64,000 bases of DNA, taken from a virus (lineage: Duplodnaviria > Caudoviricetes). The position numbers and the translations under genes were made by a program. Below, one piece after another: positions 20,175 to 54,882 of the stretch (its first letter is position 1; each line of letters starts with the position of its first letter). The stretch is taken from positions 128,001-192,000 of the IMG/VR virus record IMGVR_UViG_3300037781_000042; one strand, 5' to 3'. The notes under the pieces are model-generated. The model saw only the letters and a program-made list of their open reading frames with translations, was not told where the DNA came from and made no database searches.

Positions 20175-21659
20175 TTATATATTGACACTAGATTTACGCA
20201 ATTCTTTTATTTGTTCTTCTAAATCACCTGGATTTTCTTCTACATTAATTCTACGAGCTTTAGGTAAAAAGTCTAATTTTTCTATTTCATTATAACTTAT
20301 ATCTAACATACCCGTTATTTCTTTTTGTAATCCTTCAATAGAAGTAAGTTGATTTCCAAATAATATTATATTTCCTTTTACTAGAGGAATTTCTTTTAAA
20401 GTTTTAAGTTTTGTTCTTTGAGCAAATAAAGACCCATTTACTTTTTTAATATCTTCGAACTTTTCTATTTTAGTAAATCCTACAGTTAAATCTCCATCTA
20501 CAATTTCTGGTCCACCTTTTAAAGAAGTTAAGTACTTATTATTTGAAAGATACAAATCTCCTACTTCCTGTGGGCAATGAAGTAAATTTATAATTTCAGT
20601 ATTTTGACAATCTAAATCTCCTACTTTTACTGGAATTCCTTCTAAAGTCTTTAATGGATTATAAGAACAGTCGTATTCGCGACCTACCTGTTTTGGTCCA
20701 TCTACCAAACTAGGCAAATTGTTATAAGAACAATCAAAAATTCCTTCTACTATTTCTGGAGATCCTTCTAAATTTTCTAATTTATTATTAGAGCAATTGA
20801 AATTTTCTGTAATTTTTCTGAATCTAATTCCTATATCTAATAAACTATTTAAATTTCTTCTAAATAAGTTTATGCTTCCATCATAATCATAAGTTCCATC
20901 TCCATTATCAGTTAACTTATCTTCATTAATTCCATATTTTGTAAGTGTACGATGTAATTGAGCTTGAGGAGAAGTTAATTCTCTAGGCATAAAAATATTT
21001 TCATCAAGTCCTAACTCGTTCATAACATAATGCATTCCTATTTCTGTATCATTTGCATTATAAACAAGTCTTCTTTCATCTTCATAAACAGCTACTGCAA
21101 TTTTGGAATAAGTTTTACTGTGTGATCTATTTTTATCTATAATGTAATAAAGAGTTACTCCTTGATTATAAACATAACTTTTAAAATAATTATCTTTTTT
21201 AGCAGCAGTACACCATCTAGTTCCTGATCCGTATTTACAACTAGATTCTATCGTTTGCGGAACAATAATTAAAAAATCATCATTATCTAATATTACTTCT
21301 ACCTCAGAAGTTTCTTTCTTTTCTTTATCTATTTCCTTTTTTCTTTTAAGTGCTTGTGTAATAAGCGAATCAAATTCTTCATAAGAAAGTCTTTGAATAT
21401 CTGCATTTATTAGATTTCTATTTTCTAATTCATGATAAGTCTCTATAGCAGAAGAAAGTTCAAATGGTTCTACTTTATCTTTTAAATGAAATTCAATTAA
21501 TTTTTCTACATATTTAAAATTAGGACTTGGATCCATCTTTACAAACTCGTCAAACGTTTCCTTATCTATTTTATTTGTATTTAAAAATCTTCTTTTAGCA
21601 CTTGCTTTAGATTCATTTAAACTTAAAAAGTCTCTATAATTTAAAAATTCTTTATTCAT
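20175..21659 (-). CDS. WCTA-domain LRR protein (family B) with capsid-targeting-like leader
   Basis: MNKEFLNYRDFLSLNE leader; DPSPNFKYVEK; SCKYGSGTRWCTAA; C-terminal GxFxCSxNxLxxLxGxP repeats. Confidence 0.85.
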   Translation of the reverse strand: MNKEFLNYRDFLSLNESKASAKRRFLNTNKIDKETFDEFVKMDPSPNFKYVEKLIEFHLKDKVEPFELSSAIETYHELENRNLINADIQRLSYEEFDSLITQALKRKKEIDKEKKETSEVEVILDNDDFLIIVPQTIESSCKYGSGTRWCTAAKKDNYFKSYVYNQGVTLYYIIDKNRSHSKTYSKIAVAVYEDERRLVYNANDTEIGMHYVMNELGLDENIFMPRELTSPQAQLHRTLTKYGINEDKLTDNGDGTYDYDGSINLFRRNLNSLLDIGIRFRKITENFNCSNNKLENLEGSPEIVEGIFDCSYNNLPSLVDGPKQVGREYDCSYNPLKTLEGIPVKVGDLDCQNTEIINLLHCPQEVGDLYLSNNKYLTSLKGGPEIVDGDLTVGFTKIEKFEDIKKVNGSLFAQRTKLKTLKEIPLVKGNIILFGNQLTSIEGLQKEITGMLDISYNEIEKLDFLPKARRINVEENPGDLEEQIKELRKSSVNI

Positions 21660-22816
21660 TATTCTATTATTCTTGGTGGTCTGTTTGAAATTACTTCTAA
21701 TAAACCTAATTCTAACTCATCTCTTTTATTTGATTCTGGATTTATATTTTTAGGAGCTTCTGGAATTCTCCTATCTGGATTTACTTCTAAATTTCCTAAA
21801 TCCAGTTGTTCTCTTCTAGCACTCGAAACATTTAATTCTCCTAAATCTAATTGTTCTCTTTCTGAACTTTCTGCATTTATATTATCAGGAAGTCTAATTT
21901 CTCTTTTAAGTTTTGCTTCTTCAGCAGATTCTTCTTCAATATTTGAAATTTTTATTTTATTTGAATCTTTAAAATCTTGATAATCTTCTTCCTTAGGTCT
22001 TCTTTCGTTTCCTTGTTCTGCATATAAACCAGTTTTAGGTCTAACGAAATTAGTTAAGAAATTAAAGTCTTGTCTATTATCATCACTAAAGTAGCCTGTT
22101 CCTCCATATCCAAATAATTCTTTAGTAGGCAAATTATAAACTTCTAAAATTCTTCTAGGAATAATTTCAAATGTATGTTTTATATCATCTTCGGTTCCTT
22201 CATTAGTAATAGAAGATGCAAGTCCCGAATAATCATCAAAAACAAATTCACAATCTCTAAGCTTTAAAACAATTACTCCTTGAGAATCATCATCATATTC
22301 TAATTTATTTCCATTTCTCTTAAGTAGTATTCTAGGATCTATAAGATAAATAGACATATCAAAAAATCTTAAATTTTTAACTAAAACGTCTCTCATATAT
22401 TTTTTATCTTGAACTGTTGATCTATAAGCTTCCATTAAAGATAAAAATTTCATATCGACAGATTCTCTAGAAGATACCGTAAAAGAAGTTCCTTCAGGAA
22501 GTCTTGGACCTTCGTTATTTAAAGTTAAAAGATCATTTACTCCTGAAAGTTGAGTAAACCACCAAGGTTCTTCAATAGAAAATTTTCTTAATAAATTAAC
22601 AAAATAATCTAATTTTTGAACTCTTAAATCGTCTCCTCTTGAAGATAGAAAATCTCTAGCACCTCCTGAAAGTAATCCAGGTTCTAAAGATTCGTCAGGA
22701 GAAATTCTAGGAAAAAATTCAAAACGCAAACCAAATGTTAAATATAATGGATCTTGAACTCCATCTACACTTCTATTTATAAATCTATTTCTATAATTAT
22801 CGTACTTATTTATCAT
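21659..22816 (-). CDS. putative tail-tube-fold baseplate/tail protein
   Basis: DPLYLTFGLRF, a FTVSSRESVDMKF...LRFFDMSIYL...LKLRDCEF pattern reminiscent of gp19/gp54; low-complexity C-terminal tail with REQLDLG repeats. Confidence 0.35.
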   Translation of the reverse strand: MINKYDNYRNRFINRSVDGVQDPLYLTFGLRFEFFPRISPDESLEPGLLSGGARDFLSSRGDDLRVQKLDYFVNLLRKFSIEEPWWFTQLSGVNDLLTLNNEGPRLPEGTSFTVSSRESVDMKFLSLMEAYRSTVQDKKYMRDVLVKNLRFFDMSIYLIDPRILLKRNGNKLEYDDDSQGVIVLKLRDCEFVFDDYSGLASSITNEGTEDDIKHTFEIIPRRILEVYNLPTKELFGYGGTGYFSDDNRQDFNFLTNFVRPKTGLYAEQGNERRPKEEDYQDFKDSNKIKISNIEEESAEEAKLKREIRLPDNINAESSEREQLDLGELNVSSARREQLDLGNLEVNPDRRIPEAPKNINPESNKRDELELGLLEVISNRPPRIIE

Positions 22817-22826
22817 TTGTATCTAT

Positions 22827-23732
22827 TTAAAATTCTAATCCTGTATCTTCTAAATCTTTAGCTTCTTTATTCCATTTATAAACTTCTTGATTTATAGATA
22901 ATTTAATATTATTTTCTTCTGAATAAGAAAGAAGTTTTCTACATGAGGGTAGATCCCAATCCATTAAATCTTCTATAATCTTCTTTTGTTCTTCTTCTGG
23001 TAAAGATACTAGATATTTTATTGAATCTTCGTATTTTTCTTGAGGTTCAACTTCTATATTTCCTTTAACTTCAAAAGTAAATTTTTTAGAAAGTATATTG
23101 TTACGATGACACCGGAAATCGCCACCTACAGACTTAAGATTTTCAAGACCTTTCAAACTGGTTAACTTGTTACCATGGCACGCAAAAGTACCATCTACAA
23201 ACTTAAGACTTTGAAAACCTTCTAAACTAGTTAACTTATTATAATGCAACCATAAATCCTCTCCTACAGACTTAAGATTCTCAAGCCCTTTTAAACCGGT
23301 TAATTTGTTATTATCACACCTGAAAGAGCCACCTACAAACTCAAGATTCTTAAGACCTTCTAAAGTAGTTAACTGGTTTTTAGAACATAAAAAATAATCA
23401 CGTACAGACTTAAGACTTTCTAAACCTTCTAAACTAGTTAATTTGTTATTAGAACAATCGAAATCGCCACCTACAGACTTAATTCTAAAAGGTAACTTAG
23501 TTAACTTCATTTCACTTAAATTTATATCCCCTGTACAAGAGACATACCCTTCTTCACCTATTGTCCAAGCACCAGATAAACGATGCTTCCTAGTTGGAGT
23601 CTTTTTCCCTTCTAGGTTTTCTTGGATCCATTTTTTAACTTCTCCAGGATCTTCTAAAGGAAACCTAGATTGATCGAAACCTTTGCTTTCGTTTATAAAC
23701 TCTGTATAATTTTTTATCTGTTTAGTTATCAA
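22827..23732 (-). CDS. LRR protein family A with capsid-targeting-like leader
   Basis: TTG start; ITKQIKNYTEFINE leader; six 23-aa LRRs; ends DLEDTGLEF. Confidence 0.85.
   Translation of the reverse strand: MITKQIKNYTEFINESKGFDQSRFPLEDPGEVKKWIQENLEGKKTPTRKHRLSGAWTIGEEGYVSCTGDINLSEMKLTKLPFRIKSVGGDFDCSNNKLTSLEGLESLKSVRDYFLCSKNQLTTLEGLKNLEFVGGSFRCDNNKLTGLKGLENLKSVGEDLWLHYNKLTSLEGFQSLKFVDGTFACHGNKLTSLKGLENLKSVGGDFRCHRNNILSKKFTFEVKGNIEVEPQEKYEDSIKYLVSLPEEEQKKIIEDLMDWDLPSCRKLLSYSEENNIKLSINQEVYKWNKEAKDLEDTGLEF
23126..23483 (-). repeat. 69-bp tandem repeat encoding LRR units
   Basis: (c/g)taca(g/a)act(t/c) recurs on the + strand at 23126, 23195, 23264, 23333, 23402 and 23471. Confidence 0.9.
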
Positions 23733-24172: not shown

Positions 24173-25394
24173 TAATACTCCCTAATACTGGAGCCCATCT
24201 TCTCTGTAAAAAATCATACATAGAAGTTTTCTCCTTGTTATTTTTCCAAGTTAACTTTTTCCTTAAAGTAACTCCTTTTAAATCATCAATTGCATCTTTA
24301 CCCAAAGAAGGATTGTTTTCTATTGTCAAGGTACCTGAAATGTTTTTCGGTAAACCTTTTAAACTTGTTAATTTTTTATTTCCTTCTATTTTAAAACTTT
24401 CAACACCTTTAAATTCTGAAAAATCTACGCTTTCTAAAGATTCTAGATCTGTATCAGAAATAACAATTGCTCCTGTTATTTTAAAATCTATATTCTTCAT
24501 TCTAGAAAAATCGATATAAGGAATATCAGAATTTACATAAAAATCTTTAAAATGAATCTGTTCAACGTTTTTTTCAACATTATGTCCTATTTTAGGATTA
24601 TGATTGTGAACTAAAATTTTTCTGCTTTCTCCTTCTGGTTCAGGTTTTTCTAAAAGCTTTTTAATTTTATCTGGTAAAGCATTCCACCAAATTCTTCTTT
24701 CTTCATTCATTCCAGTATCTAAAATAGGATTAAATGAAGAATCAGGTGCGTCCCAAAAATTAGAAAGCTGTCCACTATAATTTACTTGGGCAGCAACCTT
24801 ATATAAAGGATTTTTATCTTCACTCGAAACGGGTTGACTATCAAAAGCTTTGTTTGTTATAACATAAAAATGTTGTCCTTGTCTCCAAAAATAATCGTTC
24901 CAGTGTACTGGAGTTAAAAACGTAATACACCATTTAGTTCCTGATCCTATCTTTTTTGCTCCTGTCCAATTAAATACTAAATGACATCTCCAAGCATCGT
25001 CATCATAAACCATTACACTATTTTCAGAAATTTCTTTTTTCTTCTTTTGTGTATTAGAAATCTTTCCTCTAGCATCTATAATAACTTTTTCAAAGTCATC
25101 TATTTCAGAATATCTTTGAATGTCTTTATCGTTTCCACTTATTATATTTCTATTTGTTTTTTCGTGAAACTCTTCTATTAAATGACTAAGAGCCATTATT
25201 CTTTCCAGTTCCATGATTTGAGAATAATTTTCATGATCTTTCATTTGAAGAAAGAAGTCACACATTTTCTCAATATATTTTTTATTATTTGTTGGATCTG
25301 CAGATAAAAGCTGTGTAAAAGTAGAACTGTTGATTCTTCCAGTTTCTACAAATCTTTGTTCTGCTTGTTTTTTACCTTCATTAAGATGTTGCAT
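24162..25394 (-). CDS. WCTA-like-domain protein (family B) with short leader and short LRR tail
   Basis: MQHLNE then GKKQAEQRF; DPTNNKKYIEK; GAKKIGSGTKWCIT; LTSLKGLPKNISGTL. Confidence 0.8.
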   Translation of the reverse strand: MQHLNEGKKQAEQRFVETGRINSSTFTQLLSADPTNNKKYIEKMCDFFLQMKDHENYSQIMELERIMALSHLIEEFHEKTNRNIISGNDKDIQRYSEIDDFEKVIIDARGKISNTQKKKKEISENSVMVYDDDAWRCHLVFNWTGAKKIGSGTKWCITFLTPVHWNDYFWRQGQHFYVITNKAFDSQPVSSEDKNPLYKVAAQVNYSGQLSNFWDAPDSSFNPILDTGMNEERRIWWNALPDKIKKLLEKPEPEGESRKILVHNHNPKIGHNVEKNVEQIHFKDFYVNSDIPYIDFSRMKNIDFKITGAIVISDTDLESLESVDFSEFKGVESFKIEGNKKLTSLKGLPKNISGTLTIENNPSLGKDAIDDLKGVTLRKKLTWKNNKEKTSMYDFLQRRWAPVLGSINAK

Positions 25395-25423
25395 TCTTAT
25401 TTGTTTTTATTTCTTTTAGTATA

Positions 25424-25433
25424 GTATATATTT
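25424..25433 (-). promoter_or_regulatory. candidate late promoter AAATATATAC
   Basis: Minus strand, 29 nt upstream of the ORF starting at 25394. Confidence 0.5.
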
Positions 25434-26440: not shown

Positions 26441-26445
26441 ATAAC

Positions 26446-26466: not shown

Positions 26467-26469
26467 TTT

Positions 26470-28443
26470 ATGAAAGATTCTCCTTGTAAAGATTGTAGTT
26501 GCGAGACTATTTATAGAAAAATTGAACGTCCTAAAACATACCAATTCGGGGTAGATAGTGACCAATGGATAAAATATTATGTTCCTGTAGATGATTATGC
26601 GGATGTAGCTGGTGCTGATTATTTTACATCTTATGAGGACATGGAAACAGATTACAATTCTACTGCTTTAGTAGCCTCTTTAGCAACTAAATTTTTATCT
26701 AATGGTCCGGGGTTTGATCCTTGGCACGATACTATAGAAGAAGCTGTAACATATTTAGATAGTTTTGATTATACGTTTGGAGGTTCATTTCCAGCAAATT
26801 CTTTTTATTGGACAATTATTTATGTAACTAATCCTAATTATGGAAAAGAATTACAATATGATTCTTCAGTATTAAGTTGGCCAATAAATCAAGATGCTAT
26901 TTGTTATGACGAATTAAAAGATCCTTTTTGGAAAATTAAATTTCCTATATGTGGATCGAATGGAAAAAAAGACAAAGACAATACTTTTAAATTTAAAGAT
27001 TGTGGTATCTGGAACGTAGAATATAGACTAAGACTTCGTCCTTTAGTATTTTTTGGTTGGCCAGAAGATGGAGATACTTGTGCAGATCATTGGTTAGAAT
27101 CGGGAGAAGAAGTAGATAATACTGAAAATAGAACTAAGCTATGGAATACGTATAGATTTTATAGTGCTATGAAAGAACAGGCAGGAGCAAAATATTTAGG
27201 AATGACTAAGCTTAGATTAGAAACTGGAATATTTAATGAAGATAGTCAAACACAAAAACCTATAGTTTGGTCAGAAGGAAAATATCCTCAGCCAGTAATT
27301 AAATATAAAGACTATTGGGATTCAAATTATGAAAATGGTAAATATCTTTATTATAAGGAATGCTCGCCTACTCAATGGGAAGGAATGCATCCTCATTTAA
27401 TATCTTCTGATATGGAAGAAACTGAAGTAGTTTATAAACAATTTAACTACAGTTTTACTTCAGGTTCTGTAAGTGAAGGATTATTTGAAGTAACTACAAA
27501 TGATTTTGATAATCCTGGCGATATTATTCTTTCTAAAAAATCACAACTAAAAGGAGATCAATATAATACAGCAGACATTCCTTTAAAATATAGGTTAGAT
27601 GAACCTGATAGATTTTTCAGTAACTGTTTAGAAAATCAATATGCTTCTCCAACAGGAGATGTTGAAATTGTACAAAGAGCTTTTATAAATGGTGAATGGA
27701 AAAAACTTCGTAAAGTTAGTTATAGTTTAATAGAAGTCGTAGAAAATCCTACTTCAGTTACTTTAGATGTAGATGTAGGAACAGTTATTAATTATGATGT
27801 AGGTAACATTGAAGATACTGATACATTTTATAATGGAACTACGTATAAAACAAAATATGAAATTTTAGTAAGTATAGAAAAAGTAACTAAATCTGTTCCT
27901 AAAATGGATTATGCAAACGTTACTATAGGAAATGTTACTGAATTAACAGATGATTTTGTTTATGAATTGGAAGGATTTACTCATGTAGATATGGATAAAC
28001 AAAAAGAAATTTCTATTTATCTTAAAGCTTTACCAGATTCTCCTAGCGGGCATCCTTTAGAACATGATACTGGATTTACAATGCCAGGTATTTCTTCTAT
28101 ACAACCAACTAAAAATGGATCTGACCCTGCAATTATAAATGAATCAGATACCATGCCTGAAAAATATTGGCCTTGGGGTGTACTTTCTGCAGATGAAAGA
28201 ACAGGCTATCAAGAACAATTTAAAAAAGTATACGAACCTTTACTTCCTATTCGTCCTGATCTTATTGATTTTGATGCTACTGGAACTGGGATAATAGATA
28301 ATGTTAGAGCAGGGCAAGCATATAGATGGGGTCACGTTCTTTCTGATGAAAATTGGATAGGAAGAAAAAATCCTTTCTGGTATATTATGATAGAAGAAGG
28401 ATGGATTAGATTAACTAAAACATGCGAAGGTTGTTGTGATTAA
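26470..28443 (+). CDS. large hypothetical protein, probably virion-associated
   Basis: 657-aa acidic, aromatic-rich ORF after a late motif; Cys clusters at both termini. Confidence 0.5.
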   Translation: MKDSPCKDCSCETIYRKIERPKTYQFGVDSDQWIKYYVPVDDYADVAGADYFTSYEDMETDYNSTALVASLATKFLSNGPGFDPWHDTIEEAVTYLDSFDYTFGGSFPANSFYWTIIYVTNPNYGKELQYDSSVLSWPINQDAICYDELKDPFWKIKFPICGSNGKKDKDNTFKFKDCGIWNVEYRLRLRPLVFFGWPEDGDTCADHWLESGEEVDNTENRTKLWNTYRFYSAMKEQAGAKYLGMTKLRLETGIFNEDSQTQKPIVWSEGKYPQPVIKYKDYWDSNYENGKYLYYKECSPTQWEGMHPHLISSDMEETEVVYKQFNYSFTSGSVSEGLFEVTTNDFDNPGDIILSKKSQLKGDQYNTADIPLKYRLDEPDRFFSNCLENQYASPTGDVEIVQRAFINGEWKKLRKVSYSLIEVVENPTSVTLDVDVGTVINYDVGNIEDTDTFYNGTTYKTKYEILVSIEKVTKSVPKMDYANVTIGNVTELTDDFVYELEGFTHVDMDKQKEISIYLKALPDSPSGHPLEHDTGFTMPGISSIQPTKNGSDPAIINESDTMPEKYWPWGVLSADERTGYQEQFKKVYEPLLPIRPDLIDFDATGTGIIDNVRAGQAYRWGHVLSDENWIGRKNPFWYIMIEEGWIRLTKTCEGCCD

Positions 28444-29372
28444 GCAGAACCAAATTTGTTAGGATCTAAACTTTTAAAATAATCTAAAGATTGCATTTCT
28501 ACCTTTTCAGGATCAAATTTAATATAAGGATCTTTTTCAGGTTCTGGAGCAGATGCTAAAGTTATAGTTTTTTGTTGATTTGTATTTCCTAAAATCTCTT
28601 CTTTTTTAACAGAAGCTAAATTAGCAGATCCTTTTAATGTAGTAGCTAAAGTAGCTATAGTTTTTTCTACATCTTTTAAAGGTTTAATTTTTCCTTTTCT
28701 TATCTCATTTTCTAATCTTTTAGCAGATCTTTTTCTAGCAGTCCCTTCTGATTCTCCTGTTCCAAAACCTACAACTCTATTTACATAATCTATATCAGTA
28801 AGTCTTTCTTTTTTAGCTCTTTCAAAATATTTTACTGCTATATCAAAAGCATATTCAGGATCAGCTGCTAACTCAGGATTATTTACTAAATCAACTCCTA
28901 ATTGCTTAGATGCTTTAGTATAATTGTGTTTTCCTGTAAGTTGAATTAAGCCACCTCCTCTATATTTATAACCATCTTCAAATTTGTCATTTCCTAAATC
29001 TTTTCTTTTTCCATAAAGAACTCCAAATAAATATTCTGGTCCTTTTTTTATAGCTGCTTGTGCATGTTGAATAGTAGGAAATTTAACTGCATTTTTTCTT
29101 TTACTCTTTTGCTGTTCTTTAGGGCCCCAAAGTTCCATTAATCTTTCAGCAGAATAATTAGTTAATTCTCTTTTAGGAATAAAACCGGATTCATGCTTTA
29201 TTTGTGCTAAAATGTTAGCTTGTGCTTTAGGATCTGTTATCCCTGCTTCAATTAATTTACTAAGTAAGATGTTCTTATTTAATTGCACTAACTTTTCTTG
29301 ATCAGATTTTGCAACCTTTCTCCAATTAAAAGTATCTTCGTTTAATTTATAATCTGTGTATTTTATAATCAT
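28440..29372 (-). CDS. glycoside hydrolase family 19 (chitinase-class) lysozyme with leader-like N-terminus
   Basis: AQIKHESGF, YKYRGGGLIQLTGKHNY, LVNNPELAA motifs; MIIKYTDYKLNE N-terminus. Confidence 0.85.
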   Translation of the reverse strand: MIIKYTDYKLNEDTFNWRKVAKSDQEKLVQLNKNILLSKLIEAGITDPKAQANILAQIKHESGFIPKRELTNYSAERLMELWGPKEQQKSKRKNAVKFPTIQHAQAAIKKGPEYLFGVLYGKRKDLGNDKFEDGYKYRGGGLIQLTGKHNYTKASKQLGVDLVNNPELAADPEYAFDIAVKYFERAKKERLTDIDYVNRVVGFGTGESEGTARKRSAKRLENEIRKGKIKPLKDVEKTIATLATTLKGSANLASVKKEEILGNTNQQKTITLASAPEPEKDPYIKFDPEKVEMQSLDYFKSLDPNKFGSA

Positions 29373-34366: not shown

Positions 34367-35989
34367 ATGAATAAAATAGTAAAAGGATATACAGAATTTT
34401 TAAATGAATCTAAAGCAACTGCTAAAAGAAGGTTCTTAGAAACAGATAAAATAGATAAAGAAACTTTTGATAAATTAGTTTCTATAGATCCAAGTTCATC
34501 ATTTAAATATGTAGAAAAAATGATCGAATATCACTTAGAACATAAAGTTGATGTAGAAGCTTTAGAAAAGCAAATAAAAGAATTTGACAAATTATCTTCT
34601 AGAAATTTAATTAAAAATAAAGATATTCAAAGATTAAGTTATGAAGATTTCAAAAAGGAAATAGATCAAGGGTCAACTAAACTAGAAACTAAAGAATATC
34701 AGAAAGAAAAAGAAGAGGGAATACAGGTTATTCTTGATAATGAATATTTTAGAGTAGTTGTTCCAGATACAGAAGAAGCTTCTTGTAAATATGGTCAAGG
34801 AACTAGATGGTGTACGGCTGCTACCAGATCGCAAAACCGTTTTAAAGAGTATCGATACAGAGATGATGTTACTCTTTACTATATTTTAGACAAAAGAAAA
34901 TCTAAAGAAGACAGTTTACATCAAATTGCTGTAGCTATTTATCCAAACGGAAATTCTAACGTATTTGATGCAACAGATTATTCTATGTCATTTGAAGAAA
35001 TTCCAAAAGAATTGTTTAAATATATTCCAGCAAATACCTTTAGACCTAGGAATTTAAGTATTGAATTGAATCAATTTGAAAAATTTGGGATAGAGAAAAA
35101 TAATTTAAAAAAATTAGAAAATGGGTTATACTACTATAAAGGAGATCTTCATTTAAGTAAAGAAGTATTTGATTTTTTAGAAAAAGAAAATATTTATTTA
35201 GAAGCTGTAGAAGGAACTATAAAAATATTAAATGATGATAAATTAACAAATCTTAAAATGCTTCAACATTTAAAAGTTGCAATTTCATTTATTTTAGAAG
35301 GATGTGAAAATTTAACTTCTTTAGAAGATCTTAAACAGTTAACACATATACATAAATATCTTACTATAAGACATTTAAACATTACAAATTTAAAAGGATT
35401 AGAAAACTTACAACAAGCAACATATCTTAATTTAGGGTACAACCAATTATATACTTTAGAACATCTTAAAAGCTTAACAGAGGTGGAAGACTTGTCTTTA
35501 CCTAATAATAAGTTAACAAATTTAAAGGGGTTAGGGAAAATTAAATCTCTTTATACTCTGAACGTACAAACAAATTATTTAAAAGATTTTAAAGGTTTAG
35601 AAAAATTAGAAAAATTATTTATGTTATATTGTTCAAACAATCAAATTGAAAATTTTAACGGTTTAGAAGGATTAAAAAATGAAAAAATATTTAGTATTTC
35701 TATAATTAAAAATAAATTAACAATTTTAAAATTTCCATCTTCAATTAAAATTATAGAAAATATAAATCTACATAAAAATCCTATAATTTCTCCTAAAACA
35801 AAAATAGAAATACAGGATATTATACATAATTATACAGGAAGCGGATTTAATTTAAAAACAGGAATTGAAGAATTTTTGAAATTAACAAAGGAAGAACAAG
35901 AAAGAGCTTTAGAAAAATTAAAAGACTGGGATCCTGAAGCCTACAATAAAACATTAAAATATATAAATAAAATGAACAATAAAAAATAG
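34367..35989 (+). CDS. WCTA-domain LRR protein (family B) with capsid-targeting-like leader
   Basis: MNKIVKGYTEFLNE leader; DPSSSFKYVEK; SCKYGQGTRWCTAA; SDS22-like LxxLxGLxxL repeats; WDPEAY cap. Confidence 0.85.
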   Translation: MNKIVKGYTEFLNESKATAKRRFLETDKIDKETFDKLVSIDPSSSFKYVEKMIEYHLEHKVDVEALEKQIKEFDKLSSRNLIKNKDIQRLSYEDFKKEIDQGSTKLETKEYQKEKEEGIQVILDNEYFRVVVPDTEEASCKYGQGTRWCTAATRSQNRFKEYRYRDDVTLYYILDKRKSKEDSLHQIAVAIYPNGNSNVFDATDYSMSFEEIPKELFKYIPANTFRPRNLSIELNQFEKFGIEKNNLKKLENGLYYYKGDLHLSKEVFDFLEKENIYLEAVEGTIKILNDDKLTNLKMLQHLKVAISFILEGCENLTSLEDLKQLTHIHKYLTIRHLNITNLKGLENLQQATYLNLGYNQLYTLEHLKSLTEVEDLSLPNNKLTNLKGLGKIKSLYTLNVQTNYLKDFKGLEKLEKLFMLYCSNNQIENFNGLEGLKNEKIFSISIIKNKLTILKFPSSIKIIENINLHKNPIISPKTKIEIQDIIHNYTGSGFNLKTGIEEFLKLTKEEQERALEKLKDWDPEAYNKTLKYINKMNNKK

Positions 35990-37782: not shown

Positions 37783-39678
37783 TTATTTATAATATTCTGG
37801 AATTGAATATTGTTTATTTAAAAATTTGTCCATATAATTTGTCATGTGATTTCCATCTTCAGAATTATCTGAAATTGTATCGTGTTGCATGAACAACTGA
37901 GGAAAAGACATATAACATTTAAAGTTTTCATTTCTTTGTACTAATGCTGCTAGAACTCTATCTAATTCATATTGATAACCGTTTTCTTCATAATAATCAA
38001 TAATCCATTTCATAAGTTTTCTACTTAAACAATAAGCATGTCCTGACCACACATGTGATGCTTCCCAAATTCTAACATTTCTAGTTTCATCATTTATTGG
38101 ATAAGAATCAATATAAGTTTCTGGTAATTCAAAACTTCCAGTACACATTCCTCCACCTAGATAAAATAAGTCCCATTCAGTTTTATTTTCAACTACCATG
38201 CTATTCATTATTCTTTCAAATTCTTCATTTACTTTTCTATGAATAATAATATCATCTTCTAAAATTAAAATCTTTTCATGACCTTCATTATAAGCAGTTT
38301 TTATTACTTCTAAATGAGAAAGTAAACATCCTAAATATCCAGGAGTTCTTCTAACTAGAATAGTTTCATCTACAAATTCTTTTAACAATTGACCATCATA
38401 AGCTTTCATTCTTTTAAAACTTATTCCAGCTTCATTTAATTTTTTAGTTGCTCTAGTTAATCTATCTTTTCTTCTTTCTAAGTTGATAAGGTAAACTTCA
38501 TCAAAATAGTTATTTATAGAATACCTTTCAGGCTTAATCTGTGCATTACCTTTAAAGAATTCTAGATTGTTGATTATTCTATCATCTTGACAATATTCTT
38601 TAAAATCTGGTGCTTCTAGAAGCTTTTCATAAGTTTGAACAGCTTTAGAAAAGTATAATGTCTCAGCATAACAAATTCCTAGAAGATCTAATATTTTATG
38701 ATTGTAACAAAACCTATTTATGAATAAGATATTGTCATGAGGAAATGGAAGATCTTTAGCAGCTTCTAAAAAGGTAATTGCATCAAAAGGATTTTTCATA
38801 TTATAATAATAAAGTAAAGCAAGTTCATGATATGCTTCTGCTCTATTACTTAAAAAAGAAATTGCTCTTTTAAATACTTCTTCTGACTCATCTAATCTTC
38901 CTAACATCTTCAAAGACTTTCCTTCATCTAATAAACTATACCAATATTCTTCTCTAAAAATATATTGATCTTCTTCTGATTTTTTTCTATATTTTATTGT
39001 GTACTCTATACACTTTTCCCAATCTCTACTATCAAAATAAGTTCTAGCAATATAGAATAAACATCTTCTAAAATAAGGACCGTTTGGATTATTGTTTTCG
39101 TATTTATGTAAAAGATCTAAATAAAATTCAAATGTTTCTTTTTTATTTTTTCCTTCTGTTTTATGTTGGTGATAAACTTCTAAATCTTTAAATGATAAAG
39201 AATTTTCTTCTCCATAAGGAATATATTCATGAATAGATGGTCCATGGAATTTAATTGATTCTATATTTTTCCATATCCTAGGTCTATCATAAATAGATCC
39301 AGTTACCTCATTGTGAAAGTCATGTATAGAAGTAATTAAAACTTCATATTTGGTTTGCTTAAAAATATTATATGCTTTTTGAAAAGATTCTACATCTTCT
39401 TCTAAAATATATTCATCTGCATCCATCCATAAAATATGAGTATATGGCATCTTTTCTGCAAAGTCAAGGACTTCATTTTTAGTAGTAACAAAATCTTGAA
39501 ATTCTATTTCTTTAACATAAGCATGCTCATATTGATTAGCTATTTCTAAAGAATTATCAGTAGATCCAGTATCTACTAAAAGATAACCATCTACTATATC
39601 TTTTACTGAATCTAAACAACGTTTAAGAATTTCTTCTTCATTCTTAAACATTACACAACATAATAACTTTGTTTCCAT
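37783..39678 (-). CDS. GT2 - TPR - GT25 fusion glycosyltransferase
   Basis: N-terminal CVMFKNEEEILKRCLDS, VDTGSTD, WMDADE, IHEYI (GT2); central TPR (NRAEAYHELA); C-terminal YLINLERRKDR, GCLLSH, ILILEDD (GT25). Confidence 0.85.
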   Translation of the reverse strand: METKLLCCVMFKNEEEILKRCLDSVKDIVDGYLLVDTGSTDNSLEIANQYEHAYVKEIEFQDFVTTKNEVLDFAEKMPYTHILWMDADEYILEEDVESFQKAYNIFKQTKYEVLITSIHDFHNEVTGSIYDRPRIWKNIESIKFHGPSIHEYIPYGEENSLSFKDLEVYHQHKTEGKNKKETFEFYLDLLHKYENNNPNGPYFRRCLFYIARTYFDSRDWEKCIEYTIKYRKKSEEDQYIFREEYWYSLLDEGKSLKMLGRLDESEEVFKRAISFLSNRAEAYHELALLYYYNMKNPFDAITFLEAAKDLPFPHDNILFINRFCYNHKILDLLGICYAETLYFSKAVQTYEKLLEAPDFKEYCQDDRIINNLEFFKGNAQIKPERYSINNYFDEVYLINLERRKDRLTRATKKLNEAGISFKRMKAYDGQLLKEFVDETILVRRTPGYLGCLLSHLEVIKTAYNEGHEKILILEDDIIIHRKVNEEFERIMNSMVVENKTEWDLFYLGGGMCTGSFELPETYIDSYPINDETRNVRIWEASHVWSGHAYCLSRKLMKWIIDYYEENGYQYELDRVLAALVQRNENFKCYMSFPQLFMQHDTISDNSEDGNHMTNYMDKFLNKQYSIPEYYK

Positions 39679-42178: not shown

Positions 42179-42973
42179 ATGAATAAAGAATTTAAAACAT
42201 ATAAAGAGTTTTTAAACGAAAGTAAAGAATTTGATCAATCGAGATTTCCTTTAGAAGATCCTGAAGAGGTAAAAGAGTGGATAAATAAAAATGTAATAGG
42301 ACAAATAAGTAATGATAGAATACGTAGATTTCAAGATAGTATTCAGTGGAATGTAGACAATGAAGGATATTTTAGTACTCCTGGATCTTTGTGGTTGCAT
42401 AGAATGGAATTAATAAAATTACCTTTTAAAATTAAATCAATAGGAAAAATTTTAAGTATTTCCGAAAACAATTTAACGGATCTTAAAGGTTTAGAAAATT
42501 TAGAATTTATAGGTGATTTTTTTATGGCAGATGGTAATCAATTAACTACTTTAGAAAATTTAAAAAATCTTAAATATGTAGGAGGATCTTTTAGTTGTTA
42601 CGATAATAAGTTGACAATGTTAAAAGGACTCGAAAATCTCAAATACATAGGAAATAATTTTGGTTGTTTTAATAATAAATTACTTTCTAAAAAAGTTCCA
42701 TTTGAAGTGAAAGGAACTATTTATTTTAAAGGAGATTTGCCTAGTAGTTCCCCTTACAATTATGAAGATTCTGTAAAACATTTAGCTTCTTTAAGTGAAG
42801 AAGAACAAAAGAAAATTATAGGAGATCTAGAATCTTGGGATCCTGAAGCCTATCAAATGTTAAAGGAGTATTCTTGGAAAAAAAGATTAAATATTTCAGG
42901 ATTACATACTGAAGAAGAGCTTGAATGGAGAAAAAAGGCAGAAATATTAGATGATACCGGATTAGAATTTTAA
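42179..42973 (+). CDS. LRR protein family A with capsid-targeting-like leader
   Basis: MNKEFKTYKEFLNE leader; 23-aa LRRs; WDPEAY cap; ends ILDDTGLEF. Confidence 0.85.
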   Translation: MNKEFKTYKEFLNESKEFDQSRFPLEDPEEVKEWINKNVIGQISNDRIRRFQDSIQWNVDNEGYFSTPGSLWLHRMELIKLPFKIKSIGKILSISENNLTDLKGLENLEFIGDFFMADGNQLTTLENLKNLKYVGGSFSCYDNKLTMLKGLENLKYIGNNFGCFNNKLLSKKVPFEVKGTIYFKGDLPSSSPYNYEDSVKHLASLSEEEQKKIIGDLESWDPEAYQMLKEYSWKKRLNISGLHTEEELEWRKKAEILDDTGLEF

Positions 42974-47738: not shown

Positions 47739-48410
47739 CTAAATATTATTTCCATTATTCTTTTTAACTAATTGTTGTAAATTTTCTAAAGCTTTAATAT
47801 TTAAATGCTCAAAGTATTTTGTTTTATATAATCTTCCGCCCTTTTCCATTGCTTCTACTATAGTTTCATAGAAAGTATTTGGAGTTGATTTTTCATGTTT
47901 CAATATTTGAAGTTCATTAAATACTTTTTCTTGATTTAAAATGAATTCTTCTTCATCATAAGAAAATCCTAAAAGATCTAAATCTTGAATTATTTCTGCA
48001 AGTAAATATGGCTTTACATAATAATGTTTTGGGTGATTTAATGTAGGATTGAAACTAGTCGATTTTATCAATCCTTTAATTGTTAACACATCTTCAAATG
48101 ACCATCCAGCTCTTAATAAAAAAGTATTTGCAAAATCTGCAGAAGCTTCTTCATTTACCGAAGATCCTGGAACATAAATGACATCATGAAATAAAATACC
48201 AGTTTTAAGTAAAAGCATTTCTTTTTCAGATAAATCGTTTTCTATTTCTGTTGTAATAGAATCTAATAAAGAAAAAACATGATCTACATTGTGATATTTT
48301 CTCCAAGGTTGAGAATATTGAAATACTAATTCGTCTAAAAATAAGTTTAAGTGTTCATCACTTTCATTGAAGTGAATTATTTGTTTAAATGTTTCTTTTA
48401 AATTTTTCAT
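47739..48410 (-). CDS. HD-superfamily metal-dependent phosphohydrolase
   Basis: YSQPWRKYHNVDHV, ILFHDVIY, NEEASA, IQDLDLLG motifs. Confidence 0.75.
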   Translation of the reverse strand: MKNLKETFKQIIHFNESDEHLNLFLDELVFQYSQPWRKYHNVDHVFSLLDSITTEIENDLSEKEMLLLKTGILFHDVIYVPGSSVNEEASADFANTFLLRAGWSFEDVLTIKGLIKSTSFNPTLNHPKHYYVKPYLLAEIIQDLDLLGFSYDEEEFILNQEKVFNELQILKHEKSTPNTFYETIVEAMEKGGRLYKTKYFEHLNIKALENLQQLVKKNNGNNI

Positions 48411-48414
48411 ATTT

Positions 48415-48442: not shown

Positions 48443-48446
48443 TCTA

Positions 48447-49985: not shown

Positions 49986-49998
49986 TTCATTCTCCTAT

Positions 49999-51672
49999 TT
50001 AAAATGGTATATTTTCATCTACTTCAATTATTTCTATTTCATAATCTTCATTTTGTACTGCATAGACAGGTTTTTTACCCCATATAGTAGTATACCCTCC
50101 TGATAAAGATAAATCTTCTTCTATCGATTCTTCTATTTCTTCATTTATTTTTTCCGTTTCTTTTTGACGAGGATTAGATAAACGAACACTTCTAATAAAT
50201 GCTCCGTTCATTTTAAAATTGGCTGAAGATTCTATTTCTAAATCTTCAAAACCATTCTTAGATAAATCAGAAATTTCTTTTATTGGATTTCTTTTTAAAT
50301 CTATATTAACACAATATGAAGGCAAATTTTCAACTTTAGTTATTTTATTATTTGCTAAAATAAGATTATCCATTTTATCATTTAGATTTTCTATTTTAGT
50401 TATATTATTATCTTCTAAATTTAAGTAACATATTTTATTTCCTCTAGGTAAATCTATTTGTTTCAAGTTATTGTAATTTACTGTCAAAGCTTTGATATTT
50501 AACGGGATATTTTTTAATGATTTAATTTCGGTATGTTTTAGAAATATTTTTGAAGTAATTTCTAAATCAGTATAATCTATATGTGAAATATTTCCGTGTA
50601 TAATACAAAACTCTCTTACTCTTCCTTTAGGCAACTTCACAGAAAAATTGTGAGTGTTAGAGGGCATATAGTTCACAAATCTTAATTCTGTTTTTAAATA
50701 AACGAACTCTGGTAAATTATCATAAAATTCTTTATCATGAACAATTAAATTTGAGCGACTTCCAAAAAGATATTTTATTTTTATAGGAAAAGAAGACATA
50801 TAAATAGAACTTATAATATCTGACATTTCTTCTGCTCTTTCAAAAATGTCAATTGTTTTGTCATCATTAAATACATATACTAATTGAGTATAATAACTTT
50901 GTAGTTTTTCAATAAAAGAAATTTTAGGACTTAGAGTAAAGTATTTATCTTTTATAAACTCTTCATTTTTATAATCAATTAATCTCAAAGCTTCTACATG
51001 ATTCGCATTAAATTCTTTTAATGTTTCCTTTGCTTTTTCTTCGTTTTCAAAACGAAAAGAATATAGTAGAGAATCGTCTGCGTCCCAAAGTTCAACTAAA
51101 TTTTCTTCATAATCTACTAAATATGCAGTTTTATATTGAGAATCATTATGCATAGGTTTATCTGGAAAATCGTCTAAATCTTTAAAGTGGACATAATACA
51201 AAACACTAGAAGAATTTCTATATTCACGAAATCTGTTACTGTTCTTTGCAGACGTACACCACTTGGTTCCTGCGCCATGTTTAATAGATGCATATTTTGT
51301 ATGAGGAACTACAATTTTTAATTTTTCATTGTCTACTATTACAGTTTCAGAAGTATGCGAATCTAAAGTTTTTAAAATTTTATCATTATATTTCATTCCT
51401 ACTTCAGTTAAGATACGGTTAAATTCATTAAAATTTAACTGATTAATATCTTCTTTAATGTATTTCTTTTTTCTAAATCTATTCCAATGATAAATGTATC
51501 TTGCAAGTTTAGGAATGTCGTGTTCTGTAAAATCGTTTTGTAAATAAAATTTACACATAGCTTCAAGATACTTGTAGCTTTTAGAAGGATCCGCTTCTTT
51601 AAGTTTATTAAAAAGTTTTTTGTTTATTTTTTTCTTAAGTAAATATTTTTCTTTAGCAGTTTTTAAACTCAT
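49999..51672 (-). CDS. WCTA-domain LRR protein (family B), leaderless
   Basis: MSLKTAKEKY; DPSKSYKYLE; ASIKHGAGTKWCTSA; LxLxxNxIxKIENL repeats; ends DENIPF. Confidence 0.8.
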   Translation of the reverse strand: MSLKTAKEKYLLKKKINKKLFNKLKEADPSKSYKYLEAMCKFYLQNDFTEHDIPKLARYIYHWNRFRKKKYIKEDINQLNFNEFNRILTEVGMKYNDKILKTLDSHTSETVIVDNEKLKIVVPHTKYASIKHGAGTKWCTSAKNSNRFREYRNSSSVLYYVHFKDLDDFPDKPMHNDSQYKTAYLVDYEENLVELWDADDSLLYSFRFENEEKAKETLKEFNANHVEALRLIDYKNEEFIKDKYFTLSPKISFIEKLQSYYTQLVYVFNDDKTIDIFERAEEMSDIISSIYMSSFPIKIKYLFGSRSNLIVHDKEFYDNLPEFVYLKTELRFVNYMPSNTHNFSVKLPKGRVREFCIIHGNISHIDYTDLEITSKIFLKHTEIKSLKNIPLNIKALTVNYNNLKQIDLPRGNKICYLNLEDNNITKIENLNDKMDNLILANNKITKVENLPSYCVNIDLKRNPIKEISDLSKNGFEDLEIESSANFKMNGAFIRSVRLSNPRQKETEKINEEIEESIEEDLSLSGGYTTIWGKKPVYAVQNEDYEIEIIEVDENIPF

Positions 51673-51685
51673 TTTATTCTCCTAT

Positions 51686-53344
51686 TTAAAATGGTACCCC
51701 GGCTCTGTCGCAAGTACTTTCACTAAGTGTAATACCCGAATTTACTATAATTTTTTTACTATTTGGTAAAATTAACGTTTCTTCTGCAGTTCTAGGGTTG
51801 GACAATGAAAGTTCAGAAACATCTATATCGTTTATAACTATTTTGTTGTAAGAAAGATTTAACGATTCAAAATTACTATTCGAAAGATTTTCGGGTAAAG
51901 ACTTAATATTATTTTCCATTAACAATATTCTTCTTGTCCATTGAGGAAGATTTTCTATTTTTTCAATTTCATTATCTACTAAATTTAGTAAATTCATTTT
52001 TTTAGGTAACCCTTTAATCTTTTTTATTTTACATTTACTTAAATTAATTTCTTTCATTTTTTCTGGAAATACTACTTCTATTTCATTTATTTCATTAGAA
52101 CTTCCGTTAAATATTTCCAAATGCTGAGTATTTAAATTTAAAAGTGTTTTAATTTTAGTATTTGAAACGTCTAATTTCCAATATGAAATATTTGAAATAT
52201 GTTTTAAATCGTCAATATCAGAATCATGTAAATCCAGATCATATATTAATCCGTTAGAAAAAGATTTCCAATTATCTATTTTTAAATTACCTCCGTATAA
52301 ATATACAGAAGTTATATTTTCAATATTTAAATTTTCAAAATAAATTTCCCTTATAAATAAACTTCTACAAAAACAATTTTTAATTTTAATAGGGTAGTCT
52401 GTTGGAATATAATTATTATATCCAAATACATCTAATGTTCCATCATCATTAAATACTCTATAACTTCCTACTTCGTCAATTATTTCTTTGTCGTATTTGC
52501 TATTTTGTTCTTTATATTTTTCATCAAAATATTTTTCTGAAAAATCTATATAAGATACTGCAAGTTTAATTATATCATGAAAATCTGCTCTATGTGGAGG
52601 ATCTAAAGATTTCCATATTGCTATTTTTTTATAAATTTCTTCTAGATTTTCTTCAGTGTTTTTTGTATTTTCCCAATGTATTACATAAACATTTGAATCT
52701 TCAACATCCCAAAATTTAATATATTGTTCTTCTCTACTAACTTCTGCTGCTAATTTATACAAATTACTATTTGAAGATGGATCGTCTGGATGCCTATCTA
52801 AATATTTAAAATAGAAATAATATAAAACACAATTAGAATTTTGATATTGATTAAATCTGTTATCTTCTGTTCCTGCTGTACACCATTGAGTTCCGTACCC
52901 GTATTTTATAGAAGCAGTATCTGTGTGAGGAATAACTACTTGTATATCATCATTGTTTTCTAGAATAGTTTTTTTATATTTTCGAGTGTCATTTTTTTCT
53001 ATAAATTTAATATTATATTTTTCAAATACTCGAACTAAAATAGTTCTAATTGTATCAGCAGAAAGTTGATTTATATCTTCTTTAATGTAACCCTTTTTTC
53101 TAAACCTATCCCAATGATAAATTAATCTTTCTACCCATTTTATTTTATATAGAGTTAAAAACTTTTCCGGGTAGTGGTCATCTTCATTTATGTAAAAATA
53201 ATAATTTTCATACATATCACACATAGCTTCAAGATACTTATAGCTTTTAGAAGGATCTAGTTCTTTTAGTTTATTGAAAACTTCTTTAGAAACTTTTTTT
53301 GTTTTTAAATATTTTTCTCTAGCAGATTTTAAACTCATTGCCAA
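51686..53344 (-). CDS. WCTA-domain LRR protein (family B), leaderless
   Basis: MSLKSAREKY (second Met); ASIKYGYGTQWCTAG; LRRs; ends AGVPF. Confidence 0.8.
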   Translation of the reverse strand: MAMSLKSAREKYLKTKKVSKEVFNKLKELDPSKSYKYLEAMCDMYENYYFYINEDDHYPEKFLTLYKIKWVERLIYHWDRFRKKGYIKEDINQLSADTIRTILVRVFEKYNIKFIEKNDTRKYKKTILENNDDIQVVIPHTDTASIKYGYGTQWCTAGTEDNRFNQYQNSNCVLYYFYFKYLDRHPDDPSSNSNLYKLAAEVSREEQYIKFWDVEDSNVYVIHWENTKNTEENLEEIYKKIAIWKSLDPPHRADFHDIIKLAVSYIDFSEKYFDEKYKEQNSKYDKEIIDEVGSYRVFNDDGTLDVFGYNNYIPTDYPIKIKNCFCRSLFIREIYFENLNIENITSVYLYGGNLKIDNWKSFSNGLIYDLDLHDSDIDDLKHISNISYWKLDVSNTKIKTLLNLNTQHLEIFNGSSNEINEIEVVFPEKMKEINLSKCKIKKIKGLPKKMNLLNLVDNEIEKIENLPQWTRRILLMENNIKSLPENLSNSNFESLNLSYNKIVINDIDVSELSLSNPRTAEETLILPNSKKIIVNSGITLSESTCDRAGVPF

Positions 53345-54882
53345 GATCCTCTTTTATTATTTAACACTAAATCTTCAATAAAAATATCATTAATTTTAAT
53401 TTTATTTCTGTGTAAATATAATCTATTAAACTGATGAGACATTAAATTTTCAGGAATTTCTTTAATTTCATTGTCATCTAAAAATATAGTATCAAATTTT
53501 AGTGGCAAATACTTTAAATCCTGAATATTATTATTTCGTAAATAAACTTCTCCTACATTATCAGGTAAATTTTTCAAAGATTTTAAATTATTATTTTCTA
53601 ATACAATCTCATCCATTTTATTTGGTAATTTACAATCTATTTTTTCTAAAGGTACTCCATTTGCGTGTATACTTAAAACATTTTTACTAATAAGCTTTAA
53701 AGATTTTATTTGACTCCAATTCAAATTTATTTTAAAGTAAGAAATATCTTTTAAATGATATAAATTTTTAATTTTGCTATTAGTTAAATCAATATAATAA
53801 GTACTTCCTTTTGGAAAACTAGACCATTTATTTAAATCTAAATTGTTAGCTTCTATTTTATAACATTCAACGTTTTCAATATAGTTAGATAAATCATTTA
53901 TCTTCAAATTATTTAAATATAAACCATCTCCTATAAAATTCTTTATTTTTATACAATTTTCTCCTTTCTCTTCAATATATGAATTTAAATCACAATCTCC
54001 ATAAAATTTATCTAATGTTCCATCATCATTGAAAATATATCCTCCATTATTAGGTAAAAGCGTTGCCAAATTATTTTGTTGAATATATTTTTTACTTAAA
54101 AAACGTCTATTGAAAGTTAAATATTTAATTATAGGAACATAAACTTTTTGGAATTCTAGAGAATAATGACGTTCAATAAATTCTTGTAAATCCTTTCTAA
54201 CCTCTTTTGCAGGTTCTTCTAAATCTATACTGTAACAAGTTAAAATTTTATTGTCATTAACATCCCAAAATCTAATTTCATCCTCTTCAATATCTATATC
54301 TATAGCAGTTTTATAATAATTTGAATTTAATTCAGGATTATTAGGATGAGTATCTAAATCTTTAAAGTGAACGTAATAGAAAAAATGACCTGCGTTTTGA
54401 TATTCATTGAATCTATTGGATCTTTTTGCAGCAGTACACCATCTAGTTCCTGATCCGTATTTTATAGAACCCATATCTGTATGCGGAACTACAATTTTGA
54501 ATTTATCGTTATCTACAATAACAGTTTCATGATATTTTCTAGTGTCCTTTTTTTCCATAAATTTAATATTAAATTCATATCCGGTCTCTAAAACTATCTC
54601 TACACATTCATTAAAATTTAATTGATTAATATCTTCTTTAATATAACCTTTTTTTCTAAATCTTTCCCAATGGTAGATAATTTTACTTATAAATTTAATC
54701 CTATGATTCTGTTTAAATGCTTGTGGATAACCGAGATCTGGAGATTTAGTTAAATAGTAGTCACACATTGCTTCGATATATTTAAACGTTTTAGAAGGAT
54801 CATTCTTTTTTAATTCGTTGAAAACTTCTTCAGAAACTTCCCCTGTATCTAAATACTTTTTTCTTGCTGATTTTAAACTCAT
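53335..54882 (-). CDS. WCTA-domain LRR protein (family B), leaderless
   Basis: MSLKSARKKY; GSIKYGSGTRWCTAA; LRRs; AAGGAG upstream. Confidence 0.8.
   Translation of the reverse strand: MSLKSARKKYLDTGEVSEEVFNELKKNDPSKTFKYIEAMCDYYLTKSPDLGYPQAFKQNHRIKFISKIIYHWERFRKKGYIKEDINQLNFNECVEIVLETGYEFNIKFMEKKDTRKYHETVIVDNDKFKIVVPHTDMGSIKYGSGTRWCTAAKRSNRFNEYQNAGHFFYYVHFKDLDTHPNNPELNSNYYKTAIDIDIEEDEIRFWDVNDNKILTCYSIDLEEPAKEVRKDLQEFIERHYSLEFQKVYVPIIKYLTFNRRFLSKKYIQQNNLATLLPNNGGYIFNDDGTLDKFYGDCDLNSYIEEKGENCIKIKNFIGDGLYLNNLKINDLSNYIENVECYKIEANNLDLNKWSSFPKGSTYYIDLTNSKIKNLYHLKDISYFKINLNWSQIKSLKLISKNVLSIHANGVPLEKIDCKLPNKMDEIVLENNNLKSLKNLPDNVGEVYLRNNNIQDLKYLPLKFDTIFLDDNEIKEIPENLMSHQFNRLYLHRNKIKINDIFIEDLVLNNKRGSWQ

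Follow-up and report, generated by a model that had tools for sequence, protein, structure and literature searches.

Why should one phage encode the same conserved protein module many times over, in some genes behind a short N-terminal leader and in others without it? The question is posed by a stretch of 64,000 nucleotides, referred to here as the window, which comprises bases 128,001-192,000 of a 211,581-bp IMG/VR record (IMGVR_UViG_3300037781_000042; about 82% complete, 27% GC) of an uncultured, T4-like tailed phage, and in which seven paralogous genes join a module marked by a Trp-Cys pair to a variable C-terminal arm, usually made of leucine-rich repeats (LRRs). The reading proposed here is that the phage may load the leader-bearing (tagged) copies into its head as effectors for the next host and may produce the leader-less (untagged) copies inside the infected cell; taken as a whole, this packaged-plus-unpackaged reading is given a probability of about 0.55.

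Family membership and architecture are practically certain. The seven paralogues announced in a preliminary description of the locus are all present as open reading frames (ORFs) and are homologous: a profile of their first ~220 residues gives each of them a score of 241-312 bits, and the module profile detects an eighth copy, tagged and LRR-less, outside the window (C1:37323-38696, minus strand; 67 bits). The shared plan consists of a helical N-domain (motifs DPxxxxKY and KDIN), a beta domain with an invariant Trp-Cys pair (YGxGTKWC, the Cys being invariant) and, usually, LRRs. The common helical/WCTA/LRR architecture described earlier stands in all seven copies as far as the module is concerned, but only in part for the repeats: these are clear in P0001, P0003, P0005, P0006 and P0007 (5-7 units with a period of 20-22 residues, a result reached by 0-1 of 500 shuffles), while the LRR-like tails of P0002 and P0004 are degenerate and solenoid-like, with one canonical unit each. 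By similarity the repeats of P0003 are of the internalin type and those of P0001, P0005 and P0007 of the SspH2/SlrP type. Scans of the seven proteins against Pfam, PHROGs and NCBIfam returned weak LRR matches together with phrog_17056 and phrog_28193 (unknown function), and gave the module no name. Pairwise identity between copies is 24-54% in the module and 23-34% in the C-terminal part; BLAST-significant similarity of the arms is essentially limited to P0005-P0007, and between tagged and untagged arms there is almost no detectable similarity, the single cross-form hit (listed as among tagged copies) covering 48 residues at E 8e-4.

The division into three tagged window copies and four array copies without the leader is as previously described. 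P0001 (20175-21659, minus strand; 494 residues) begins with the 16-residue leader MNKEFLNYRDFLSLNE followed by S (codons 21612-21659), and its module, which extends to about residue 221, is followed by seven LRR units of 20-21 residues (residues 287-462). P0002 (24162-25394, minus strand; 410 residues) has the short 6-residue leader MQHLNE followed by G (25377-25394) and a divergent module with the variant WCIT. P0003 (34367-35989, plus strand; 540 residues) has the 14-residue leader MNKIVKGYTEFLNE followed by S (34367-34408), a module reaching to about residue 219 and internalin-like 22-residue LRRs at residues 354-470 (LRR_4, E 8.6e-5; internalin-type LRR models, E 1e-11 to 2e-9). The leader takes the form MNK..Y.EFLNE before S, or MQHLNE before G, and the four array proteins start M-SLK (M-SLKSARKKYL), precisely where the leader ends in the tagged copies.

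What kind of signal is this leader? Its commonest version in the genome is MNKEFKTYKEF(L/I)NE followed by S, and leaders of this type are found genome-wide on about two dozen otherwise unrelated ORFs. In phage T4, the capsid targeting sequence (CTS) MKTYQEFIAE is by itself sufficient for packaging (PMC8442874), and the stretch KTYKEFLNE of the leader closely matches KTYQEFIAE of the CTS. T4 propeptides of 6-20 residues direct Alt and the internal proteins to the scaffold core and are then cut off by gp21 at sites of the ITE/LTE type, the propeptide of Alt being ITE-6 (PMC5694885); the T4 internal proteins are a diverse anti-restriction cargo (PMC3012670). Elsewhere in its genome the present phage encodes a gp21-type prohead protease (Peptidase_S77, PF03420, E 3.1e-16) and a gp23-type major capsid protein (Gp23, PF07068, E 8.1e-30), both above the cut-off. 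The CTS-like leader, these two genes and a homologue in the virion of phage PA5oct (see below) give indirect support to the packaged form postulated in the preliminary description, and make packaging of the tagged copies likely, as far as sequence comparison can tell. A Sec signal peptide was also considered for the leader and ruled out, the leader being charged and not hydrophobic.

Two further kinds of tagged genes deserve mention. A second family of tagged LRR proteins, devoid of the Trp-Cys module, is encoded at 16956-17795, 22827-23732 and 42179-42973 and at C1:205420-206262; its N-terminus reads MNKEFKTYKEF(L/I)NE followed by S(K/Q)E(F/L)DQS(R/I)FPLE(D/E)PEEVK, so that the phage would pack several kinds of LRR proteins. 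In addition, the gene at 28440-29372 (minus strand) carries the leader MIIKYTDYKLNE followed by D and a lysozyme/chitinase-like segment (Glyco_hydro_19, E 2e-8), and is a candidate packaged wall-degrading enzyme.

The four untagged genes form a tandem array on the minus strand, in the order P0007 (53335-54882; 515 residues, with SlrP/SspH2-like 20-residue LRRs at residues 364-496), P0006 (51686-53338; 550 residues), P0005 (49999-51672; 557 residues, five 20-residue LRR units, AGGAGA 8 nucleotides 5' of the ATG) and P0004 (48447-49985; 512 residues, start M-SLKLARKKYV). The start of P0006, formerly placed at a TTG at 53344, is moved to the ATG at 53338, on which the ATGA overlap with the stop of P0007 and the gene call in a sister contig agree. 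Within the array, genes are coupled either via 13-nucleotide gaps with AGGAGA or via ATGA overlap, and next to them lie genes for a FEN-like exonuclease and for a gp47-like phosphoesterase. P0005 and P0006 share (I/V)PF C-termini (NIPF and GVPF, respectively), preceded by unrelated tails. Only 36 nucleotides after the array lies a 223-residue gene (47739-48410, minus strand) with a leader-like start, MKNLKETFKQIIHFNE followed by S, with neither the AATATATA motif nor a Pfam match; this gene may encode a tagged protein within a unit other than a late one.

Are the two forms also expressed differently? An unbiased 8-mer count over upstream regions yielded two classes of promoter-like motif. Class 1, the late-type motif AATATATA(G/A), has 37 copies; its 8-mer core, AATATATA, is present in 26 upstream regions where chance would give 0.6, and the motif sits 30-50 nucleotides 5' of the capsid gene, the protease gene, both tail sheath genes and many leader-bearing genes. 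Among the tagged copies, the core is found 38 nucleotides 5' of the start of P0002 (25425-25432, minus strand) and 35 nucleotides 5' of that of P0003 (34332-34339, plus strand); P0001 lacks a separate motif, because its ATG and the stop codon of the preceding gene (21659-22816) overlap. Class 2 is a 38-nucleotide box, TAAAAAATTTTTCTTATATTACAnCAnATTCAATTAACA, present in 12 copies genome-wide. Its sole copy in the window, where none is expected by chance, is TAAAAAATTTTTCTTATATTACAACACATTCAATTAACA at 54916-54953 (minus strand), 34 nucleotides 5' of the array, with TTTTTCTTATATTACAACACATTCAATTAAC at 54916-54946 (minus strand); the different promoter-like motif reported earlier for the array is therefore borne out. 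All class 2 units to which a name could be given are non-structural (the operon of a CCA-adding enzyme, an AAA_28 protein and a beta-flower protein). The upstream gene is closed by a terminator-like hairpin with a T-run (54961-54992, minus strand), which isolates the array as a unit of its own. A scan for the sigma-70 consensus was uninformative in DNA of this composition (27% GC), with 77 sites against 88 expected.

Translation signals follow the same division. Shine-Dalgarno sites had been claimed for the array genes, and indeed AGGAG or AGAGGA precedes all four of them and none of the three tagged copies. Counted over the whole genome, Shine-Dalgarno-like sites are present upstream of 7 of 12 genes in class 2, 2 of 31 in class 1, 4 of 34 genes with a leader and 89 of 230 remaining genes (39%), the background being 8.7%, so that the sites in the array belong to a general split between gene classes; translation of late mRNAs appears to be initiated in the absence of a Shine-Dalgarno site.

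The array is maintained. Its four genes recur in the sister contig L102 (79-6514), unchanged in length and free of indels; the 38-nucleotide box there is 100% identical, against a divergence of up to 9% in coding DNA. P0004 shares 99.0% nucleotide identity with its counterpart, and the ratio of nonsynonymous to synonymous substitution rates (dN/dS) in the array is 0.21-0.28 (P0005 0.21, P0006 0.25, P0007 0.28), the FEN gene having 0.05; the intact ORFs and these ratios indicate that the array is kept under purifying selection. Comparison of the LRR part with L102 gave no sign of diversifying selection, dN/dS being 0.08-0.49 on few changes. Divergence from L102 is 1-9% in the array, rising toward the promoter-proximal genes, and 1-2.4% in the flanks; the array may be a local hot spot of divergence or recombination.

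The relationship between the two forms was addressed with a tree of the genome's own copies and foreign proteins, computed without the leader columns and supported by the Shimodaira-Hasegawa-like approximate likelihood ratio test. The four array copies form one clade (88), whose sister is the untagged foreign protein P0070 (74), a tagged protein coming next (84); P0001 pairs with P0003 (96), and P0002 groups with the foreign tagged proteins P0051 and P0079 (99). As the genome's own copies are scattered over the whole family tree, they do not represent a recent split into two forms; the genome rather contains a number of ancient lineages, and in one of them the leader was lost ahead of the expansion that produced the array. 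The helical domain (~residues 2-120) has an isoelectric point (pI) of 5.8-6.4 in the three tagged copies versus 9.1-9.7 (net charge +5 to +12) in the untagged four, a difference that may correspond to one evolutionary event, since the untagged copies form a single clade.

What, then, is the module? AlphaFold modelled residues 1-226 of P0007, with 136 sequences, at a mean predicted local distance difference test (pLDDT) of 89, as five helices followed by a six-stranded alpha/beta domain; a model made with 8 sequences, in which the beta domain reached a pLDDT of 34-52, was discarded. The fold search of the WCTA domain proposed in the preliminary description was run: Foldseek against the PDB, VIA-align wide and the Swiss-Prot part of AFDB gave no informative match to the module, and libraries of predicted structures returned uncharacterised phage proteins with E down to 2e-10, including proteins of PA5oct and CcrBL9, followed by weaker matches to models named PcfJ-like (E 6.5e-4 to 4e-2). 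The resemblance to PcfJ suggested earlier is probably real, given these fold matches and the 10 of 136 homologous modules that match PF14284 (best E 5.7e-6), but remote, as PF14284 at its 25-bit cut-off matches none of the seven window proteins and nothing in the six-frame translation of the genome. Of 100 feature hits, 91 fall in a set in which 33% carry PcfJ. PcfJ-like domains also precede hypervariable regions in the target genes of diversity-generating retroelements (PMC5758913). The link explains little, because PcfJ is itself without known function.

The module belongs to a very large family, its profile matching 10,216 representative proteins at E<=1e-3 and 6,325 at 1e-10; relatives are encoded in at least 556 IMG/VR stretches, and family members range from 208 to 3,332 residues with up to 5 modules per protein. 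Only the Cys of the WC pair (C149) is invariant in 136 of 136 modules; W148 (99%), G143, Y161, K191, D28, Y35 and D84 are conserved at 94% or more. The domains joined to it include LRR, ankyrin, WG, DUF4116 and LRV repeats, an M23 peptidase and a PolyA_pol-type nucleotidyltransferase. Three giant relatives (P0015, P0024 and P0029) combine at least two modules with a PolyA_pol/CCA-type nucleotidyltransferase, with ankyrin plus DUF6919, or with an M23 peptidase plus DUF4116.

In 128 foreign modules the P1 position, directly before the module, is E in 102, P3 is L, I or V in 97 and P1' is S or G in 104; a junction of the form (L/I/V)xE followed by S/G is found in ~80% of foreign modules, including 27 of 44 internal ones, and just 2 of 84 N-terminal foreign modules are without a leader. 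From these statistics, members of the family are as a rule preceded by an apparent prohead-protease site. Of 80 IMG/VR loci, 54 have a tagged start, 9 an internal site and 17 an untagged start, and one foreign lineage (L077, L079 and L083) carries tagged and untagged forms side by side. A PHROG tally over 149 neighbours of relatives (head maturation protease 3, terminase 2, baseplate 2) is too sparse to show a morphogenetic context. One relative has been seen in a virion: EST35_0205 of the Pseudomonas jumbo phage PA5oct (482 residues) begins MKLFEVFTLYE, contains FGKGTRWCTAA, aligns with the module profile at an hhalign probability of 99.9 (E 5e-31) and is annotated as 'structural protein, ESI-MS/MS', in a phage for which mass spectrometry (MS) identified 93 particle-associated products (PMC7318152).

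Taken together, these observations can be accommodated in the following scheme. The tagged copies (P0001, P0002, P0003 and the eighth copy) would probably be made late; a T4-type targeting leader would probably carry them into the prohead core and the gp21-type protease would probably trim them after (L/F)NE, and they would then exit the head with the DNA and act in the new host before phage genes are read. The untagged four would most likely be produced inside the cell at a pre-late stage, each with a different arm; the basis for this step is their start at the mature end, the promoter-like motif of their own, the Shine-Dalgarno sites and the neighbouring genes of DNA metabolism, features that incline the balance towards pre-late expression. 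The idea of one activity delivered twice survives in part: the module, at 24-54% identity, is common to both forms, but the arms of tagged and untagged copies are unrelated, which argues for one chassis with two delivery modes and not for one activity sent twice. The two sets of arms look like different specificities, and the best guess from the sequences makes the module the working part that all copies have in common, as enzyme or adaptor, the repeats choosing the host target. That the module is itself enzymatic, as the preliminary description proposed, is a tentative proposition that we consider doubtful.

A first rival reading regards the module as a carrier or anchor (to packaged DNA, to the scaffold core, to the ejection path, or as an escort of cargo), the variable C-terminal part being the sole effector and the untagged copies being cytoplasmic binders that reuse the scaffold. 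In relatives the module does occur joined to enzymes and repeats of unrelated kinds, up to 5 modules being strung together in one protein, and fusions of the module-M23 peptidase type fit a carrier or anchor equally well; no conserved His stands beside the invariant Cys across the 136 modules, which renders a papain-like mechanism unlikely and leaves no catalytic-type set such as Cys-His; and the helical domain of the untagged copies is basic. On the other hand, a Cys invariant in 136 diverse modules, next to a GxGT loop and a Trp conserved at 99%, points to an active or ligand site more readily than to an anchor, the helical domain of precisely those copies that are supposed to be packaged is not basic, and no extra anchor is needed if, as in T4, the CTS alone is enough for packaging (PMC8442874); a carrier or anchor is considered rather unlikely. 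Still less probable is the view that these proteins are adhesins of the virion surface or tail, whose LRR arms bind the host envelope, the array supplying alternative receptor-binding or decoration proteins expressed late via read-through. The likeness to internalin LRRs, the location of the tagged copies among tail and baseplate genes, the baseplate or terminase genes near some relatives and the PA5oct homologue, known merely as 'structural', would all suit it; yet a cleavable T4-type head-targeting leader is unexpected on a tail or surface protein, the array has its own non-late motif, an upstream terminator and replication-gene neighbours, relatives bear arms of intracellular type (ankyrin, nucleotidyltransferase), and no fibre, collagen or trimerisation motifs were seen.

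It might also be argued that the tagged/untagged difference has no meaning, the array consisting of duplicates under drift whose leader disappeared by chance, and the two DNA motifs bearing no relation to timing. Timing does rest on motifs, the leader-like gene after the array lacks the late-type motif, and the array diverges faster than its flanks; drifting duplicates would nevertheless hardly keep four intact ORFs free of indels between two phage variants at a dN/dS of 0.21-0.28, start exactly at the mature end and retain a fully conserved 38-nucleotide motif, and other phages, too, have untagged forms, in some cases next to tagged copies, the untagged clade having an untagged foreign sister, so that this explanation too is given little credence. 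Several points nonetheless weigh against the packaged-plus-unpackaged effector reading, in addition to the missing His and the M23 fusions. The E-S/G junction might in part be a helix cap and not a cleavage site; the MS evidence for PA5oct establishes virion association and not a location in the head or ejection; P0002 and P0003 fit the 8-nucleotide late-type core and not the extended AATATATAnnnTAT; because the gene at 47739-48410 is leader-like, the second-class unit may not be purely pre-late; and, for this uncultured phage, packaging, cleavage, injection and timing are all inferred from the sequence.

The phage itself has a contractile tail, with a baseplate hub gene and two large sheath paralogues inside the window (6882-10238 and 12512-16075, plus strand; 1,118 and 1,187 residues, each with a late-type motif of its own); late-type motifs in the window stand, for example, at 6838, 12476 and 39734. 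A megablast comparison of 25 kb with 50,697 phage records gave no match at the DNA level, tblastn matches are confined to CcrBL9, PA5oct-like phages and Salicola phage SCTP-2, and a scan of IMG/VR for close relatives of P0007 returned none. A 631-residue protein encoded at 37783-39678 (minus strand) has a tandem pair of glycosyltransferase PHROG matches and may modify DNA or surface sugars.

Should the effector reading be right, a short junction, (L/I/V)xE followed by S/G before the module, would mark thousands of phage proteins as capsid-delivered cargo, and the module, represented by 10,216 clusters or more, defines a family that ranks among the largest uncharacterised ones in phages. Lineages with adjacent tagged and untagged forms would constitute a natural experiment on what is needed at DNA entry and what can be left to later synthesis, the exchangeability of the binding arms hints at an arms race with targets in the host, perhaps defence systems, and gp205 of PA5oct provides a cultivable handle that makes the family directly testable. 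The boldest version of this idea, speculative and on present evidence improbable, takes the PcfJ-like Trp-Cys module to be either a novel thiol-dependent enzyme or an adaptor hijacking a host factor, aimed at host proteins by exchangeable LRR, ankyrin, WG and DUF4116 arms in thousands of phages and usually loaded into the capsid behind a prohead-protease site so as to act at time zero, to which the phage described here would add a second, leader-less wave with other arms; the family would then correspond, on the phage side, to the modular LRR effectors that bacteria deliver through secretion systems, and would probably represent a large unexploited class of proteins for anti-defence or takeover.

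How does such an arrangement compare with known systems? The preliminary description knew of no described system of this form, a statement that has to be withdrawn in view of T4, where Alt is an injected head protein, its relatives ModA and ModB are made early and the copies differ in their targets (PMC2988021). In both cases one phage encodes paralogues that share a domain, some with a packaging propeptide and some without; unlike Alt and the Mod proteins, however, the shared domain here is an uncharacterised, remotely PcfJ-like module with no ADP-ribosyltransferase (ART) family recognised in the Pfam, PHROGs and NCBIfam scans, the copies are four plus four instead of one plus two, targeting would be entrusted to separate LRR arms, and the system is known from genes alone. 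By analogy, it may work like Alt/Mod while standing outside the Alt/Mod family. The likeness to the CTS-tagged internal proteins of T4-type phages lies in a leader of ~10-16 residues, rich in Y/F-x-E-F and ending in (L/I)xE, borne by diverse proteins of a phage with genes for a protease of gp21 type and a capsid protein of gp23 type; small size and basic charge characterise the T4 internal proteins, whereas the proteins considered here are multidomain and 410-540 residues long, those presumed to be packaged are not basic, and the cargo amounts to about two dozen genes.

With the PcfJ-like proteins of phages and conjugative elements (PF14284), the family appears to share a fold and a weak sequence signal over the whole module, as well as an association with mobile elements that enter cells as DNA. 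EST35_0205 of PA5oct is a true homologue of the module with a leader-like start, and differs in that its C-terminal half is helical and not made of LRRs. The giant relatives, with 1,000-3,300 residues and up to 5 modules joined to peptidase, nucleotidyltransferase and repeat domains, recall the polyvalent proteins of phages and conjugative elements, an architecture described for proteins delivered with invading DNA (PMC5512222); the window copies, however, have one module each, and that description makes no mention of this module, PcfJ, LRR or DUF4116. Finally, in LRR type III effectors (the SlrP, SspH2 and IpaH class) and in internalins, proteins that enter another cell or act on it, as in the proteins described here, an LRR arm with a period of 20-22 residues is joined to a separate conserved domain; unlike those effectors, the phage proteins score far below the family cut-offs and have neither a NEL ligase domain nor a secretion signal, so that the likeness is one of repeats only.

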